DNA of 64,000 nucleotides from assembly GCA_003598015.1 (NCBI GenBank), contig QZKE01000033.1, positions 124,616 to 188,615 of the forward strand. The letters are read 5' to 3'. This document shows positions 4,032 through 47,912 of the stretch, piece after piece (the first letter of the stretch is position 1; the number at the start of each line of letters is the position of its first letter). The position numbers and the translations under genes were made by a program. This DNA comes from Actinomycetota bacterium (lineage in GTDB: Bacteria; Actinomycetota; Geothermincolia; Geothermincolales; RBG-13-55-18). The notes beneath the pieces are model-generated. The model searched no databases, was not told the origin of the DNA, and was given only the letters and a program-made list of their open reading frames with translations.

Positions 4032-4870
4032 GCTGGTCCCTCCCGGCTCGGCCCGGGTTGGCGCGATACCAGCCCGGCAGCGGCGAGCGCCCTCCCGAGA
4101 AGTGGCATGGAGTAGCTCTCGGGCCCGTAGAGAACGGCCTGAACGCGCGGGAAGTAGAGCCCCGCGAGGGCGATGGGCGCGATTATCGCCTGCGAGATCT
4201 CGCGGCCGATGGCGCTTGCCGTGTTGATATGCAGCGAAACCGACCTGGGACCGATCCCTATGGCACCCTCTATCACATTCGCCTTTATCTCCGCGAACTG
4301 GGGCTTGCGATACTGGTAAAGGTCCGCCACCAGCAGCATCTCGCCCAGATTCCGCCCGGAGGCCTTCGCGCAGGAGATGGATAGTATGCGTTCCCCGTCA
4401 CGGCCGAGGGCGCACTCCAGGGTGTCGCCTGAATCCGTGAACTCGATATCGGCGATGAACTTGGGGAAGTTATAGTTATCGACTCCGGCCTTCAAAGCCA
4501 CCTCCGTGGTCACCGGAAGCCGCACGACGAAAGCCGAGAAGAAACGGTCCACCGCCTGCCTGAGAAGGTTATATCCCGGGAAACCCGCATACAGGGGCGA
4601 GTTGGTGAGGACCGCGACCGCGAATTCGTTATAGGGCCCGATATCCGTGTCCCGGTATTCGAAGGCTCCCAGCAGAAGGCCTCCGACACCCGGCATTATC
4701 TGGGCCGCCTTGAACCTGGGGTCGGGCAGCAACCGTCTCAACTTCATGATGTTCGCCGGGAGAAGGGCCCCGAGAGCGCGGGCTTCTCTATAGAAAAGGG
4801 GCAACTTCCCCTTGACTCCGGGGATGAACTCGACGTCGATCTGCTCTATGTCAGTAAAGAAGTCATTCAC
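4028..4870 (-). CDS. ADC-like family protein (paralog of 3225..4031)
   Basis: GTG start at 4870 with GGGAGGTG 8 nt upstream. The longer track ORF (to 5212) overlaps the acyl-CoA dehydrogenase gene. Motif VTTEVALKAGVDNYNFPKFIADIEF resembles the neighbouring paralog. Confidence 0.45.
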   Translation of the reverse strand: MNDFFTDIEQIDVEFIPGVKGKLPLFYREARALGALLPANIMKLRRLLPDPRFKAAQIMPGVGGLLLGAFEYRDTDIGPYNEFAVAVLTNSPLYAGFPGYNLLRQAVDRFFSAFVVRLPVTTEVALKAGVDNYNFPKFIADIEFTDSGDTLECALGRDGERILSISCAKASGRNLGEMLLVADLYQYRKPQFAEIKANVIEGAIGIGPRSVSLHINTASAIGREISQAIIAPIALAGLYFPRVQAVLYGPESYSMPLLGRALAAAGLVSRQPGPSREGPA

Positions 4871-11624: not shown

Positions 11625-12093
11625 GGAACCCCACCTCGTAAGGGCGATCTTATGCCCCGGTCGGTGCTGCGTATGTTGCGTTATAGATATGCCATATAAT
11701 TTTAAACTGTATTAGAAAAATAAATCAGATTATAGATATTGTCAACAGACAGCTATTGCGGCTGAAAGGCAGGGTACCTACGGGATGATTGCCAGTGGAC
11801 GGTATGCAGATTGCCGTCATGCGCATCAGACAAGGCTGCATCGTCATGCGCGGAGGTTGCGGCCCCACAGCGGGAGGAATGCTGCACAGGCAGCCTTCAG
11901 GTCAGGTGCCCCACCGCTGGCGTCTCGATATAACATCTTCTTAAGGGTGGCGTAACAGATCCTTCACATGGAATCCGACTTATACAATAGATCAATCAAG
12001 GCGCTGCGATGGCGGGTCGGCGCGGGTATGATACCTCCGCCGGACCGGCCTAGCGGGCGAGCCGAGGCCATGAGGTGGCGGGGAGGGATCACC

Positions 12094-39895: not shown

Positions 39896-40208
39896 ACCCT
39901 TTCCACCACCTCAAATCGGCCTGTTCTGTAAACATTCTACAATGCCAAGAAGACCTTGACACTATAAAAACATTACATGGGGCTAAACAGCACAGCCCAT
40001 GCCGGTCGTGAGGGTGCTGTCGTGATCCGTAATGTGTGGGACTACCCAGATATGATACCCCTACCCGAGGTGCTATCATGGTTGTAGTGCTGTGGTTCGG
40101 GGCCAAAGGGTTCCAACTATTTAAGGGTTACGCGCAGGGCAGTTCCCTTGCATGCGTGACCACCATCAAGAGGGCCTGCACCACTGGATCTATCCAGGTG
40201 AGGTGCAC

Positions 40209-43200
40209 ATGGGAAATATCTTCATCAGCCACGTCATTGCGGACGAGCTCCTCATGCGCGAAATAGCGCAGGGGCTCGAGGAGGCGGGCTATGCCGCCTG
40301 GTTCTTCGAGAGGGGCGTCCTCCCCGGAACCTCCTATCTCATCCAGATCACCCGGGCGATAGAGGCCTGCGACGCCCTGGTACTGCTGGTCACCCCCGCA
40401 GCCCTCGAATCCGACCAGGTGACCAAGGGGGTGGTGGGGGCCTTCGAGCGCAGGATACCTTTCATACCGGTACTGGTGGGTGTGATCCCTGACGAGCTCA
40501 AGGAATGCCAGCCGGAGTGGCGGCACGCCCTGGGGGGAACGGCCATGCTCTGCTGCGGGGAGGGGGGCCTCTCACCCACCATACCGCGCATCATAGATGG
40601 AATCCGGGCGCTGGGCATAGAACCCAAGGAAAGGGAGTTCTCTACAACTACCCCTGCTTCCTCCGCACCAGCAGATGTCTCCGAGCACATTCTCTCCTAC
40701 CGCTCATCCCTGGAGGGGGAGCGCAAGCAGGTGACGGTGCTCTGCGCCGGCGCATCCCTTCCTCCCGCCCTCTCCGAGAAGCTCGACCCCGAGGAGGTAC
40801 ACGACCTCCTGAGGCCGGCTATAGACATCATGGCTGAGGAGGTCCACAGATACGAGGGCACCGTGGCCCAGCTCGCAGGCGACGGCCTCACCGCCGTCTT
40901 CGGAGCCCCCCTGGCTCACGAGGACGACCACCAGCGGGCCCTGTACGCGGCACTGGCCATCAGGAAGCGCCTGGGCGGATACGAGGAGAGACTCAAAGCC
41001 AAGGGGATGGAACTTGCCCTGCGCGCGGGGGCCAACACCGGCCTCATCAAGGTGGAGGCCGTAGGGGAGGACCTCTCCATGTCCTATACCCCCCTGGGCA
41101 TGGGCAAGTCCCGCCTGCTGCTCGAGTTCAGGAAAACCCTCCCCGAGGACGAATACACCTACCTGGAGGGGGGGTGAATCCACTACGGGGAGGCCATCGC
41201 CTACCTCCCCATCCTGGACATCCTGCGGGACTACTTCGATATCGCTGAGGGAGAGGATGAGAAGAGCAGCAGACGCAAAGTGGAGGAAAGGCTGGCTCCC
41301 CTGGACGGCCAGCTCTCCCATATCCTCCCGCCCCTCGAGGAGCTGCTCTCCCTTCCCATGGACGACGAGTCCTATCTCTCCCTGGAGCCCGCGCAGAGGA
41401 GGAAGAGAACCTTCGAGGCCATCCGCTGTCTGCTCATAGCCGAATCCCACAAGAGGCCTCTGGTGGTCTCGGTGGAGGACCTGCACTGGATGGACAGGAC
41501 GAGCGAGGACTTTATCTCCTATTTCGTGGAGAGCATGCCCGCTGCCTCCATCCTCCTGCTCCTGCTCTACCACCCGGAATACAGCCCTGCCTGGGCAAGC
41601 AAGACCTATTACCGGCAGATCCTCGTGGATCACCTGCAGGAGAGGCCGAGCATGGAACTGGTGCAGGCCATCCTCTCTGATGGTGAGGTCTCCCCCGAGC
41701 TCTCCGCTTTTATCACCGAAAGAGCCGCTGGGAACCCACTCCTTATCGAGGAGCTCACCCGCTCCCTGCTGGAGTCGGGCTCCATCACGGCAGAGGACGG
41801 GCGCTACACCCTCGCGGCCGAGCCCTCTGAGATCAAGGTGCCGGATAGCATGCAGGGCATCGTCGCCTCCCGCCTGGACCATCTGCCTGAGGAGGAGAAG
41901 GAGGTTCTGCAGCTCGCCTCGGTCATCGGGAGGGAGTTCTCACTGCGCCTGCTGGAGGAGGTCACCGGCCTGGGTAAGGTGCTCAAGTCCACACTCCACG
42001 CCCTGCAGTCCCTGGAGCTCATCTACGAGAAGGGCCTCTTCCCTGAGCCGGAGTACATCTTCAAGCATGCCCTCACCCAGGAGGTGGCCTACGAGAGTAT
42101 CCCCTCAAGAGAAGGAAGAGACTGCACGAGAAGATCGGCCAGGCAATTGAGCGGCTCTACCCGGAACGCCTGGAGGAATTCTACGAGACCCTGGCCCACC
42201 ACTACTCCAGGAGCGAGAACGCGGAAAAAGCCGTGCACTACCTCCGGCTCTCCGGAGACAGAGCGACACGCGACTACGCCAACTGGGAGGCCATACGCTT
42301 CTACCAGGAGGCTATACATATACTCGATTCCCAACCGCAGAGCGAGGAGACAAAACGGGCCAAGTTGGATATCTTCATCTCCATCCTGGACCCCGCCTTC
42401 TTCCTGGGCTTTCCCGAGGGCAGCAGCGAGTTCCTGGCAGAAGCGGAGAGGCTCGCCTGGGAACTTGGTGACGATGGCAGCCTTGTCGCCGTTTACAGCA
42501 GGTTCTCCCTCTACCACACCATGAGGGGAGACATATCCCTGGGTGTGGAATACTCCTGGAAATGCTTCGACGCAGCGGAGAAGGCCGGGGACGTTAGATC
42601 TATGTCCCTAGCCGCTTTCGACATCTGCAGCTCCCTGTTCTTCTCGGGAGATTTTTTAGAAGTCGTCATGATTGGCCGCAAGGTCATCGAGGCCCTGGAG
42701 GAGAAGCACCTGGAAAAAGAGCTCAAAGTAGGGCCGTGGACCGTATACAGCGATCAGTGCGCGTGGTGCGGAGAAGCCCTGGGGATGATGGGGGAATTCG
42801 AGGAGGCAAAGACGGTGCTGAAGAAGGGGATCGAGCATGCCCTGGGGATCGGTGAAGTCTTCGGGATCGGATATATCGGCCAAGCTCACTGCGTCGTTTC
42901 GTTCCCGGAAGGGGACGCGGATGGCCTTGCCTATCACGCGAGCAGGTCCATCGAGCGCTTCGAGGAGACGGGGGTAAAGTTCCTCCTGGGAATTTCGATG
43001 GCTTGGTCGGGGCTGGGCTATTTGCTCCTCGGCGATTATGAAACTGCAAGGGAGGATATCGAGAAGGGCAGCGAGAGCAATAGAGAGTTTGGCTTACCAA
43101 TCATGCTGTCGTTTTTTTCATGGGCGCTGTCCCTGGTTGATCTCGGAGCAGGGGCACCCGGCAAAGCAAAAGCGCATGCGGAGGAGGCCTTGAGGCTGGC

Positions 43201-43519
43201 GCGTGTGCACGGGGCGGTGTTATATGAGGCATTGGCCCTAGTGGCCCTGGGAAGGGCGGAGGGAGAAGAGTCCCCCTCTCGTTTGCGGGAAGCATCAGAG
43301 CATATCCGTTGCGGTATTTCCATGGCCGAGGAGATGTTGTCGAAGCCAATCTCACAGCTGGGCTATATTTTTCTTGGCGAGGTCTTCGAGCTAGCCGGCC
43401 GAAGGGAAGAAGCTGTGGAGGAACTTCGTAAGGCAGAGGCGATGATGGAGGAGCTGCGGGTGATTCCCGACTCCTACTGGCTCACCCGCACCCGGGAAGC
43501 TCTGGCGCGTCTCGGTTAG
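40209..43519 (+). pseudogene. Disrupted TIR domain - class III adenylate/guanylate cyclase (partial) - AAA_16/STAND ATPase - TPR protein (in-frame TGA at 41175-41177; -1 frameshift in C4 run 42101-42104)
   Basis: TIR: MGNIFISH...DALVLLV...PVLV. Cyclase N-half: ERKQVTVLCAGA...GDGLTAVFGAP..HEDD. Walker A: GMGKSRL. The same frame continues after TGA (...LEGG*IHYGEAIAYLPILDIL...). The downstream frame resumes ...PLKRRKRLHEKIGQAIERLYPERLEEFYETLAHHY then TPR repeats to 43519. Confidence 0.6.
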
Positions 43520-44695: not shown

Positions 44696-45837
44696 TCATG
44701 GCTGGAAACCCACAACGTCGTGGCCTCCGCTCCATGACCCGTCGTAGTCGAAGTACATGGGGCGCTCGGCGATTACAGGCGGGCCGCTGGTCACCAGGAC
44801 CCGGCAGGACAATTGCAGGCCGATGCCGGCGTCCAGGTTGACGGGGATGGTGTAACGGCTCCCGGCCGGCAGGCTGTGCTCACGGGTGAAGGCGTCCCCA
44901 CCCTGGGGCATGTAGGTCACCAGGACAGTGGATGGAGAATCGGCGGGGTTGTACAGGCACAGCCACTCCTCGAAATCGCTGTCCGCGTATCCCTCGGCGA
45001 AAAACCATTCACGCCCCGGCGCGCCTGCGCCGATGACGCAATGACCTCCCGTCCATGCCCCATGATAATTGAAGTACATGGGTCGTTCGGCTACGATGGG
45101 CGCATCCGCTGCGACCTTGACGGAAACCTCGCGGTTTGGCCCCACGACGTCGTTAACACATACCGTAGTGCGGGAGACGGGACCGACGATGACATCCTGA
45201 TCCTGCCTGGTGCCGTCGGCGAACATGTAGGATATGGAGACGCCGGCCGGCTGCAGGCCGGGGTTCGCGAGGCAGAGATACTCGTCGAACTCGCCCTGTC
45301 CCGTGTATCCCTCTGCGAAATAGAAGATCGTCCCGGGGCGGGGGTACCGATGACATCATGCCCGCCCGTCCACACCCCGTTGTAATTGAAATACATGGGG
45401 CGCTCCACTACGATAGGCTGCCCCCCGGCGCTTTCAACTTTCACGGAGAAGTCGTGTGCTACGTCGTCGGCGACGCCCAGCTCGTCCCGGGGATCGACGG
45501 TAAGGCGGGAATGTGCGGCTACGGCCACTTCCTGGCTGTCCATCGTGCCGTCTCCCAGCATGTAGGTTATTTTCGCCGTCGCTTGTTCGTCCCCGGGATT
45601 CTGGATGCACAGGTAAGGCACGAAGCCGGGTCGGCAGGTCCCCTCCGCGAAATAGAAACAAGTCTGCGGCGCGGGGATACCCACTACGTCATGGCCACCC
45701 GTCCACACCCCGTTGTAGTTGAAGTACATGGGGCGCTCGGCCACGATACGCTGTCCGTTCACGCATTCGACTTTGATGGAAAAGTCGTATGAGGTGTCGT
45801 CACCGGTCCCCAACTCGCTGCGGGGCAGCACGGTCAT
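44696..45837 (-). pseudogene. Tandem-repeat protein (at least 3 copies of an about 120-aa domain with W.FAEG and ERPMYFNY..W.GGHDV motifs) split into two frames by a 1-nt indel near 45335-45350; N-terminus starts mid-repeat
   Basis: Track ORFs 45091..45837 and 44696..45226 overlap in different frames. DNA at 45315-45378 is 1 nt shorter than the paralogous segment at 45655-45719. Confidence 0.45.
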
Positions 45838-46039
45838 GCGTGGTCCTCATCTATAACACTGCACAGGTCAGAGCTTCATCTCTCCGAACTGCTTTCTTAC
45901 CTCAGTGGAGGGCGGAGGATCAAAGCCCCCATAGGCTGCGCCAACGGATTTACAGTCCGGAGATGCCCCTAGTACACCTCAGATAATCTTGTCAAGATCT
46001 CAATCCCCGCTCCCCCACCGATCCTCTATATATAGTGGC

Positions 46040-46171
46040 ATGAAATCTGTGCCCCTCCATGACGGAGACGAGTGCCTGGGATCCGTCCTCCTCACCACCG
46101 ACCTCGATTTTTATGACGGCATGAGGTCAAGGCACGGAAGTGGAGGTGATTGTCGCCAAGTAAGGGTATAA
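46040..46171 (+). CDS. Small hypothetical protein (about 43 aa), paralog of 47335..47523
   Basis: MKSVPLHDGDECLGSVLLTTDLDFYDGMRSR vs MKNVPLYDCDQNIGSVPLTTNLDTWDGMRWR; ends 55 nt upstream of Fic. Confidence 0.35.
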   Translation: MKSVPLHDGDECLGSVLLTTDLDFYDGMRSRHGSGGDCRQVRV

Positions 46172-46226
46172 TAATCATTGTATTACCCTTACTTATGGGT
46201 TATTACCCCGACTGTCAGGAGGGCAG

Positions 46227-47273
46227 ATGAACACGCTGTCGCTGGAATACATAGGGGGGAAGCTCCTGCCTCAGCAGTTGTTGAAGACCATCAGATTGAT
46301 CGGGGAATACAAAGGGAGGCAAGACCTGTTCAAGGCGCAGGCGCCACAGATGCTGGAGAGCTTGAGGCAGGTGGCCATGGTGCAGAGCGTGGAGTCTTCC
46401 AACCGCATCGAGGGCATCACCGCACCCCATGAGAGAATCCTGGCCTTGGTGGGCGAAAAAACCTCGCCCAAGGACAGGTCCGAGCAGGAGATCGCCGGAT
46501 ACCGGGACGTGCTCAACAGCATCCACGCCAATTATAAGAACATGGAGCTCTCTGAGGAGCTTATCTTGGGGATGCACAAAGACCTATACGGATACCTTCC
46601 CGATGAAGGAGGCTTTTGGAAGAGGAGAGACAATCGGATCGTTCAGATAATGGCCGGCGGGAGCGTGGTAGTGAGGTTCGACCCCGTGGCGGCGTCTGAG
46701 ACCAAGAAGGCCATGGCAGACCTGCAAAAACGCTTCGAGGTGTTGTGGCGCTCGGGTGAAGTGGAGCCGCTCCTTTTAATCGCAAGCTATGTATTCGATT
46801 TTTCGTGCATCCATCCCTTCCAGGATGGGAACGGCAGGATGGCGCGCCTGCTCACCCTCCTGCTCCTCTACAAGCAGGACTATGAGGTAGGCCGCTACAT
46901 CAGCCTGGAGAAGGTGGTGGAGCAAACCAAGGATAGCTATTACCGCGTGCTCTATACATCCTCCCAGGGATGGCATGAAAAGGAGCACGACATCCTGCCA
47001 TGGTGGGAATACTTCATCGGGGTTATGTTGCTCTCTTCCTATAGGGAATTTGAAGAGAGGGTGGGGGTGGTGTCCTCATCGAGGGGGACCAAGACCGCCA
47101 TGGTCTTGGACGTTATCAACGGCTTTGCAGGAGAGTTCACCTTTGCGGACTTAAAGGAAAGGTGCCCCACCGTCAGCGTGGATATGATCAGAAAGGTCTT
47201 GAAAGATGAGCGCGGGGCCGGAAACCTGGAATGCAGGGGCAAAGGCCCGGGGGCGAGGTGGAGGAATACATGA
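46227..47273 (+). CDS. Fic family protein (class II, N-terminal inhibitory SxxxEG motif) with C-terminal wHTH-like domain
   Basis: HPFQDGNGRMARLL Fic motif; SNRIEG inhibitory motif about 130 aa upstream; lower-GC region. Confidence 0.85.
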   Translation: MNTLSLEYIGGKLLPQQLLKTIRLIGEYKGRQDLFKAQAPQMLESLRQVAMVQSVESSNRIEGITAPHERILALVGEKTSPKDRSEQEIAGYRDVLNSIHANYKNMELSEELILGMHKDLYGYLPDEGGFWKRRDNRIVQIMAGGSVVVRFDPVAASETKKAMADLQKRFEVLWRSGEVEPLLLIASYVFDFSCIHPFQDGNGRMARLLTLLLLYKQDYEVGRYISLEKVVEQTKDSYYRVLYTSSQGWHEKEHDILPWWEYFIGVMLLSSYREFEERVGVVSSSRGTKTAMVLDVINGFAGEFTFADLKERCPTVSVDMIRKVLKDERGAGNLECRGKGPGARWRNT

Positions 47274-47334
47274 TATGCAACCAATGCGCTGAAAGTGCAC
47301 CTGCACTCTCAGGTAGGCATCGTCGGGCAGCAAC

Positions 47335-47523
47335 ATGTCCTTTGGTGAGGCAATGAAGAACGTGCCCCTCTACGACTGTGACCAAAACATAGGCTCCGTC
47401 CCGCTCACAACCAACCTTGACACCTGGGACGGCATGAGGTGGCGCTTTCAGCAGACCGGCTGCCATCTGGGTATAGGGAAGCTCGAGGATGGCCGCTTCT
47501 ACGCCTGCTACTCCAGCGACTAG
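47335..47523 (+). CDS. Small hypothetical protein (paralog of 46040..46171); in-frame TAG at 47521 followed by 52 more coding-like codons to TAA 47689-47691
   Basis: Paralogy as above; GC3-rich codons continue in the same frame after TAG (PEGIVRRKQDDGIWEVLFRCTGDFGPPALAVVISEEEAKELVRECKEDMYEEMFG). Confidence 0.4.
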   Translation: MSFGEAMKNVPLYDCDQNIGSVPLTTNLDTWDGMRWRFQQTGCHLGIGKLEDGRFYACYSSD

Positions 47524-47767
47524 CCCGAAGGCATCGTCCGGCGCAAGCAAGACGATGGCATCTGGGAGGTCCTCTTCAGGTGTACCGGCGACTTCGGACC
47601 CCCGGCCCTGGCGGTGGTGATCAGCGAGGAAGAGGCCAAGGAGCTGGTACGAGAGTGTAAAGAAGATATGTATGAGGAGATGTTCGGGTAAGGGCTAAAA
47701 TGGAGCATCTACACAATCATATCGTAGCCATTATTTTGGATTGATATAGCGGTACGTCTCATGTATA

Positions 47768-47835
47768 AGGGCTCAAATGTTGACATTTCGTATTTCTCTA
47801 CAAGCCCCATGGATTTGAAAGTCAACATTTGAGCT
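47768..47835. promoter_or_regulatory. Long inverted repeat GGGCTCAAATGTTGACATTTCG / TGAAAGTCAACATTTGAGCTC (25-nt spacer) upstream of the glpA-like operon; operator or terminator hairpin
   Basis: 14-bp perfect core GCTCAAATGTTGAC in both arms read from sequence. Confidence 0.4.
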
Positions 47836-47912
47836 CTGACCCCATAATCTTGATTTTTATGGGTAGAATGGTATGAATAGGCCTGAGGACACCGATTGAA
47901 CGAAGGAAACGT

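Follow-up and report, generated by a model that had tools for sequence, protein, structure and literature searches.

The 64,000-nt stretch of contig QZKE01000033.1 analyzed here (the window), from an Actinomycetota bacterium, contains a small islet at 45850-47912 whose GC content is 53.7%, compared with 61.3% in the rest of the window. Within it, a 348-aa class II Fic gene is flanked on both sides by co-oriented, paralogous small open reading frames (ORFs), one starting at 46040 and the other, interrupted by an in-frame TAG, at 47353. This arrangement, found as a preliminary description of the DNA had reported it, raises the question of whether the small ORFs encode dedicated partners of the Fic protein, whether the TAG is decoded, or whether both ORFs are remnants of genes that have decayed. 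Our analysis favors the last answer with good confidence: the islet very probably consists of decayed copies of a small gene family around a horizontally acquired, self-inhibited Fic, in which the TAG marks a pseudogene and the Fic gene is cargo. Overall, the locus represents ordinary island decay around a small gene family from mobile elements.

The downstream ORF carries much of this evidence. Its frame runs on the plus strand from an ATG at 47353 (the ORF caller begins it six codons earlier, at 47335) to the TAG at 47521-47523 and is then open again to a TAA at 47689-47691, with 55 sense codons after the TAG and a third-position GC content (GC3) of 0.79 over the full 47353-47691. The conceptual protein of ~112 aa has 52 homologues, most of ~110-121 aa, at 70-82% identity and ~95% coverage (80-82% identity at 95% coverage for P0001/P0002), all of which are annotated as hypothetical and none of which has a Pfam domain. 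The ORF at 47353-47691 is a full-length family copy of 112 codons interrupted by a nonsense codon, and the earlier suggestions of a coding-like frame beyond the TAG and of a protein (of ~112-115 aa) cut short by a stop were both borne out. Specifically, the TAG takes the place of a tryptophan codon (column W57 of alignments A2/A3), TGG differing from TAG by one G-to-A transition, and this tryptophan is invariant in the 17 full-length family members aligned. The other invariant residues of the family in alignment A3 (P5, L6, Y7, G14, N21, G27, H38, G40, P58, E59, R63, R64, and K65) are all retained in the downstream copy.

The open codons after the TAG, their GC3, and their match to homologues might also reflect programmed recoding, in which the TAG is decoded by pyrrolysine insertion, suppression, or read-through to give a protein of 112-118 aa, but we regard this as extremely improbable. 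The homologues invariantly have tryptophan (TGG) at this position, other copies of the family carry stops and frameshifts at unrelated positions, the window shows neither a recoding signal nor pyl genes, and an Rfam search of it returned nothing. Moreover, TAG closes 14 of the 49 long ORFs in the window, so that there is no sign of TAG reassignment, and the read-through that had been offered as an option was not upheld.

A sequencing or assembly error, or a minority allele of an otherwise intact gene with TGG, appears quite unlikely as well, although a single G-to-A change would suffice and the copy is otherwise undamaged, its ratio of nonsynonymous to synonymous substitution rates (dN/dS) being like that of functional copies. 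The window matches the 194-kb contig Ga0104761_1000014 of sample 3300007354; assemblies from this sample and from one with a different accession, 3300038436, are 100% identical over 9-13 kb (9.3 kb for the latter), including the TAG. The family is also prone to pseudogene formation, and the downstream copy lacks more than its tryptophan: the 79-nt spacer between the Fic stop and the downstream ATG (47274-47352, plus strand) matched no family locus by blastn, so the copy lacks the promoter-like leader of the family. At its other end, a degenerate leftover of the conserved 3' flank of the family is found at 47692-47709 on the plus strand (by blastn, the similarity to L012, L013, and L014 reaches as far as 47704-47709). 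Because the TAG stands at an invariant tryptophan, is the same in two assemblies, and is an ordinary stop in the window, its best reading is a plain nonsense mutation, in what is now a predicted pseudogene. The dN/dS of the window copy against other copies (0.16-0.30) resembles that of functional copies, which suggests that the copy was inactivated recently relative to its divergence.

The ORF at 46040 is a second, more heavily damaged piece of the same family. Codons 1-29 (46040-46127, plus strand) match the family consensus (tblastn E=2e-10), after which the homology stops and the frame continues to a stop at 46171, giving an ORF of 43 aa. This 5' stump retains the promoter-like upstream region of the family ('ctatatata..ATG') at 45992-46039 on the plus strand, within a blastn block covering 45992-46127; the same leader is present in L001, L002, L012, L013, and L027, and the upstream arrangement TCTATATATAAT-N(5-8)-ATG is conserved in other copies. 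Compared with alignment A3, the stump carries replacements at invariant or near-invariant residues (Y7H, N21D, W25Y, and W30S), and its differences from the consensus are distributed almost evenly over the three codon positions (6:6:10); it appears to be in neutral drift.

Together, 46040-46127 and 47353-47440 form an 88-nt direct repeat of 70% identity that terminates in the identical 13-mer GACGGCATGAGGT, and since the stump by itself matches the family consensus, this repeat is well beyond chance. The stump is 75% identical to the consensus and 70.5% identical to the copy 1.3 kb downstream, which ranks only 9th among its 22 relatives and has a single derived position in common with it. Each thus has closer relatives elsewhere than in the other, which makes a recent local duplication or target duplication unlikely; we take them for separate members of the family, of which one is truncated, or else for the products of a very old duplication. 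The proposal that they are the duplicated remains of a gene into which Fic inserted thus holds insofar as remains of family genes do bracket the Fic gene, but probably not in treating them as duplicates of one gene. In a blastn comparison with all family loci, homology was limited to the blocks 45992-46127 and 47353-47709, and the intervening 46128-47352 matched none of them. Two other interpretations of the repeat were set aside. The mismatches between the two 88-nt stretches are not confined to adenines, and there is no reverse transcriptase, which speaks against a template/variable repeat like that of a diversity-generating retroelement. An att core at GACGGCATGAGGT was rejected in that the 13-mer is conserved coding sequence (DGMRW) throughout the family, while a similarly placed truncation, L006b, ends 11 nt further on and other break points are scattered.

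The Fic gene between these remnants (46227-47273, plus strand; Pfam PF02661, E=2.8e-16) encodes a Fido-domain protein with a C-terminal winged-helix-like region. Its catalytic motif, HPFQDGNGRMAR (residues 195-206; 46809-46844, plus strand), was read from the sequence, as was an inhibitory motif, S58-N-R-I-E62-G63 (46398-46415, plus strand). The core HPFx(D/E)GNGRxxR is intact and agrees with the consensus HxFx(D/E)GNGRxxR, and the (S/T)xxxE(G/N) motif lies in the same chain, N-terminal to the core. An SxxxEG placed N-terminal to the core is the mark of class II, auto-inhibited Fic proteins, and the earlier assignment to this class on the strength of SNRIEG was confirmed. The solved homologue 8UQU_A (PDB 8UQU, 'Fido domain-containing protein', for which a literature search found no paper) aligns end to end over Fic residues 1-345 (E=2e-103); its SSNRLEG aligns with the inhibitory motif, and the two proteins have SSNR(L/I)EG and HPFxDGNGR in common. 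Like this protein and SoFic of Shewanella, both representing class II Fic AMP-transferases, the window Fic combines the canonical HPFx(D/E)GNGRxxR with an in-chain inhibitory motif, but it aligns only partially with SoFic and lies far under the NCBIfam SoFic equivalog cut-off (53 vs 550 bits). Its features are those of an ordinary class II member, a predicted AMP-transferase.

The Fic protein is 100% identical to an NCBI entry, 'MAG: Fic family protein [Actinobacteria bacterium]' (MAG, metagenome-assembled genome). The next-best homologues, also of 348 aa, reach 63% identity, and those that are named come from Cyanobacteria, Thermodesulfobacteriota, and Desulfatiglandaceae MAGs rather than from Actinobacteria, with thousands more following. 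Because the nearest relatives belong to other phyla and the islet has a lower GC content, this pattern points to horizontal acquisition of the gene.

These findings bear on the idea that the small proteins serve the Fic protein as dedicated partners, whether as antitoxin, regulator, or adaptor, with stump, Fic, and downstream copy forming a three-part module in which the TAG is tolerated or read through. Several observations are compatible with it: the downstream copy lies on the same strand only 79 nt after the Fic stop, the distant relative P0191 carries a C-terminal ribbon-helix-helix domain as in many antitoxins, and copies of the family often precede conflict-type effectors (Mrr_cat, HEPN, and Fic). 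We nevertheless consider this idea very improbable. No Fic homologue was found in any of the ~18 other distinct family loci (tblastn E≤1e-3), and no relative of the small family was detected by profile searches (E>1) at three loci of close Fic homologues, which themselves sit in defense-type neighborhoods (methyltransferase and YopA; MNT/HEPN; PglZ and helicase). The genes downstream of family copies are inconsistent and often metabolic or on the opposite strand, and the upstream member is a stump of 29 codons with mutated invariant residues. No trans-acting antitoxin is expected because the inhibitory helix of this Fic is intramolecular, which accords with established knowledge of class II Fic proteins. 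In class I Fic toxin-antitoxin modules (VbhT/VbhA and FicT/FicA), which likewise have a small adjacent ORF on the same strand, the SxxxEG helix is borne by the small antitoxin, whereas here it lies inside the Fic protein; unlike such antitoxins, the window ORFs have no SxxxE(G/N) motif, no PhdYeFM or VbhA-type Pfam match, and no co-occurrence with Fic elsewhere. The partner or antitoxin role put forward in the preliminary description was not supported, nor was a resemblance to DUF2283, since neither small ORF matched any Pfam family at E≤1.

What the small ORFs represent becomes clearer from the family as a whole. The ~18 other loci (numbered within L001-L028) were gathered by scanning genomes and metagenomes and by looking up contigs; where a source is named, the label is that of a Desulforudis sp. 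SURF_60 MAG from the same site as the window, of uncultured Actinomycetota MAGs, or, in one MAG, of an uncultured archaeon, and the habitat range of subsurface and sediment rests partly on our reading of sample identifiers. Pairwise dN/dS among nine family copies is 0.14-0.46, which indicates that the family encodes a protein under purifying selection, and we regard it as in all likelihood a real protein family. By our count, about two thirds of ~30 distinct copies are nevertheless damaged (L002b, L006a-c, L007, L013a, L015, L018, L019, L021, L024b, L026, and L027b-d). The damage includes in-frame stops (L006b, L007, L018, L019, L002b, and L027c), frameshifts (L013a, L015, and L019), truncations (L006a at residue 57, L021 at 68, and L026b at 67), losses of the start (L024b begins at residue 36 and L002b at residue 59), and an insertion of ~84 nt in two L027 copies. 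Break points inside the gene are scattered, at residues 8, 16, 29-33, 36, 48, 57, 59, and 67-68. The L027 insertion, at approximately 4482-4565 and 11931-12019, follows codon 8 in both copies and has GGCAACGCTTT repeats and a hairpin inside it; one copy keeps its frame through the insertion, and the other is disrupted by it. It could represent a miniature insertion element or be left over from a duplication.

Family copies tend to cluster, with four in 13 kb in L027, three each in L024 and L006, and two each in L002, L013, L026, and the window. Adjacent copies are co-oriented in 11 of 11 pairs, drawn from 7 loci (binomial p ~5e-4 under random orientation), and the genes between them, mostly of conflict or defense type, vary, as do the neighbors from locus to locus. 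This cargo comprises DUF5677, Mrr_cat, an ABC-three-component-type CTD10/DUF2326 set, ParE and PhdYeFM, HEPN ApeA, NACHT/STAND NTPases, N6/N4 methyltransferases, and a PglZ-SNF2 cluster. Specifically, L002 is a mirror image of the window, in which a full copy is followed by a DUF5677 gene, a 3' fragment, and then Mrr_cat, and L015 has a DUF5677 gene 87% identical to that of L002 followed by a full-length but frameshifted family copy. From these arrays it follows that the order of stump, Fic, and full copy is one instance of a general habit of the family and is not Fic-specific. An Rfam search of six family loci yielded only one tRNA and one ALIL element; L006 contains a tRNA gene, and L002 an integrase fragment and an IS3 element.

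Arrays of this kind could also mean that the family gene plays a structural part in a cassette system, its co-oriented copies acting as recombination scaffolds or boundaries for the capture and exchange of defense genes. The consistent orientation, the variable defense-like cargo, the single cargo genes bracketed by partial copies in mirror image (the window and L002), the mosaic junctions of L005/L016 and L009/L011, and a conserved inverted ~40-nt module flanking the gene in a subset of loci are all in keeping with this, yet it seems rather unlikely to us. The break points are scattered with no evident site-specific recombination site, no recombinase or integrase is consistently linked to the copies (which likewise sets them apart from an integron-like cassette array), copies within an array are only 70-85% identical with no near-identical copies marking recent events, and the purifying selection on the gene shows the protein to be important in its own right. 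The co-orientation is accounted for equally well by tandem accretion of related integrative elements at hotspots, for which the tRNA of L006 and the integrase fragment of L002 can be cited. The more specific proposal that promoter-bearing copies of the ~115-aa family bound a previously undescribed cassette array swapping Fic, Mrr-like nuclease, HEPN, DUF5677, and STAND NTPases among subsurface Actinobacteria-like lineages is unlikely; were it true, the window would hold one eroded cassette. Among known systems, orphan rhs/cdiA-CT modules and tandem accretion offer a likeness, with co-oriented, partly truncated copies, variable conflict genes between them, and stumps near a complete copy. In contrast to rhs/cdiA-CT, what is repeated here is an entire small gene together with its promoter rather than a large toxin gene's conserved end, the cargo does not consist of a toxin tip paired with an immunity gene, and there is no defined recombination junction.

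Ordinary decay of a variable island thus remains our preferred reading of the window, and the following history would account for it. A deep-subsurface Actinobacteria MAG would have acquired the small lower-GC patch horizontally, either as an already eroded piece of a variable island or with the island being built in place. Successive integration of related mobile DNA, or recombination between copies, followed by deletion, could have produced the arrangement. The upstream member would have been reduced to a 5' stump that kept its promoter-like leader and now drifts neutrally, while the downstream member, complete but lacking that leader, would have been knocked out by the TGG-to-TAG change at the invariant tryptophan. 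The 52 coding-like codons after the TAG would then be the remainder of a recently inactivated gene whose erosion is still to come, rather than part of a read-through product, and the Fic gene would be one passenger among variable defense-type cargo rather than a dedicated partner.

Several points weigh against this account. Both assemblies come from one site and possibly from one clonal population, so that 47522 may be polymorphic in the population or may carry the same systematic error in both. Apart from the TAG, the downstream copy is intact, and it follows Fic closely on the same strand with a Shine-Dalgarno-like element (GGTGAGG); an N-terminal product of 56 aa could still be made and would perhaps be functional. 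The origin of the arrangement, by accretion or recombination, is drawn from comparison between loci, and the contexts of Fic homologues were sampled at three loci only.

For Fic biology, the consequences are small, the flanking ORFs being remnants and neither a new Fic antitoxin nor a recoding event. What is new is that a small-protein family of at least 400 members, so far unannotated and lacking a model in Pfam, NCBIfam, or PHROGs, has been delimited, one subfamily of which has expanded as co-oriented, decay-prone arrays in defense-type islands of uncultured lineages from the subsurface and from sediment. Among 1.84 billion representatives, a profile search returned 63 proteins at E≤1e-3; in a protein collection, such a search returned at least 400 at the same threshold. 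The broader family, of ~100 aa, follows the pattern NLDxWDG ... GxHxGxGK ... DGRxY ... WxG ... YAxI ... EA ... Y..(I/L)FGE, from which the window subfamily differs by an insert of ~20 aa. Neither the small ORFs nor their distant relatives matched Pfam, NCBIfam, or PHROG models, apart from the ribbon-helix-helix tail at the C terminus of P0191; other relatives are tandem duplications. AlphaFold models have five beta strands followed by two or three helices (predicted local distance difference test scores, pLDDT, of 70 and 78), and Foldseek comparisons with PDB and BFVD gave nothing significant (E>0.02).

Distant members are found on mobile elements of several kinds: a 15-kb, tectivirus-like Bacillus cytotoxicus contig (L031/L032) with a protein-primed PolB, a phi29-type single-stranded DNA-binding protein, and a LexA-binding protein; a prophage with integrase, Bro-N, and amidase; the conjugative element L034 (TraU and TrbC), where the gene directly precedes ssb; plasmids of Clostridium botulinum (small ones), Anoxybacillus, and Geobacillus; and 21 viral contigs of IMG/VR, in which the neighbors are series of small accessory ORFs. 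The window subfamily appears to descend from this broader family of phages, plasmids, and conjugative elements, but differs from these relatives in being chromosomal and was absent from IMG/VR in our search. A tblastn search of a phage collection with the window protein (tryptophan restored), P0191, and P0289 (the Bacillus cytotoxicus member) gave no usable match. In their positions, among small early or accessory phage ORFs, on the PolB element, and next to ssb, the ~100-aa homologues resemble the small accessory genes of phage early and plasmid leading regions, which include anti-defense genes, although the family has no sequence or fold match to named anti-defense or other characterized proteins (Pfam, NCBIfam, PHROGs, and Foldseek PDB/BFVD). 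Judging from context, we would guess that the small protein is accessory, possibly with an anti-defense or establishment role on mobile elements; that the broad family constitutes a new anti-defense or establishment factor, a weaker variant of the cassette-array proposal, is likewise a guess. The family is open to tests of such functions, for which the Bacillus cytotoxicus PolB element and the L034 conjugative element are cultivable systems, and it is a possible marker for variable islands in MAGs of this kind.

Two short sequence modules recur around family copies. The first, of ~40 nt (GTAGAATnnTGGCATCrGGAGGTGCATATGGGAAAT), reads outward as a -10 box, a Shine-Dalgarno sequence, and an ATG; many unrelated genes have it immediately before them, and some family copies are flanked by it as inverted repeats. 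Its positions include L013 236-276 and 721-683; L016 1699-1739, 2233-2192, 3460-3500, and 4426-4464; L002 3064, 6339, 9878, and 11677; and L006 7625 and 9588, among others. Inverted modules flank the family gene in L013 and L016, right-end modules follow it in L002, L005, L012, L014, and L015, and none was found in the window, L027, or L028. The module looks like a propagated 'mobile promoter'. Marks of an insertion sequence, transposon, or miniature inverted-repeat transposable element (MITE) carrying the small gene were sought as well: besides the inverted modules around some copies, there are no clear target duplications, no copies of >90% identity, and no transposase, and the module also stands alone before unrelated genes and is absent from the window, which leaves such an element a doubtful candidate.

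The second module, of 58 nt, begins with a GC hairpin, cgggggtgtgcccccg, and continues with ttatgcatgaatagaggcgatattctag. Its copies on unrelated contigs agree at 91-97% identity, and it has no Rfam match. It sometimes stands in for the usual family leader and occurs at L009 1201-1259, L002 4953-5010, L006 5626-5682, L007 1-57, and L013 10906-10839, and also in L016, L018, and L019. Mosaic junctions were observed in addition. Between L005 and L016, identity is 83% in the gene but 96% in the right (downstream) flank; L009 and L011 agree at 99.9% as far as 163 nt after the stop and show no relationship from there on. Such junctions point to recombination or gene conversion affecting family genes, or to assembly forks at repeats.

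Further features lie in and around the islet. Upstream of the Fic gene, a hairpin or palindrome at 46156-46198 on the plus strand (DNA fold -9.2 kcal/mol, z=-4.3) overlaps a TATAAT box and is followed by AGGAGG and the ATG; it is a possible operator or promoter of Fic, perhaps an operator for the winged-helix C terminus of the Fic protein. A near-perfect palindrome at 47768-47837 (20-nt arms around a 30-nt loop; DNA fold z=-6.2) occurs only once in the window and has no counterpart in the family loci. Located 75 nt before a DAO/GlpA-like gene (47913), it may serve as an operator or terminator or be what is left of another element. Directly upstream of the islet, a DUF5719-like gene with repeated ERPMYFNYxGxWTGGH units (44696-45837, minus strand) is spread over two overlapping frames (ORFs 45091-45837 and 44696-45226), which suggests a frameshifted pseudogene or a sequence error, and DUF5719-like domains recur near family copies in L024 and L027. 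Finally, 3-6 kb upstream of the islet (40152-43519), there are genes for a TIR_2-domain protein, a 414-aa protein, and a TPR protein, followed by MsrA and MsrB, and the wider neighborhood may itself be a defense-type variable region.

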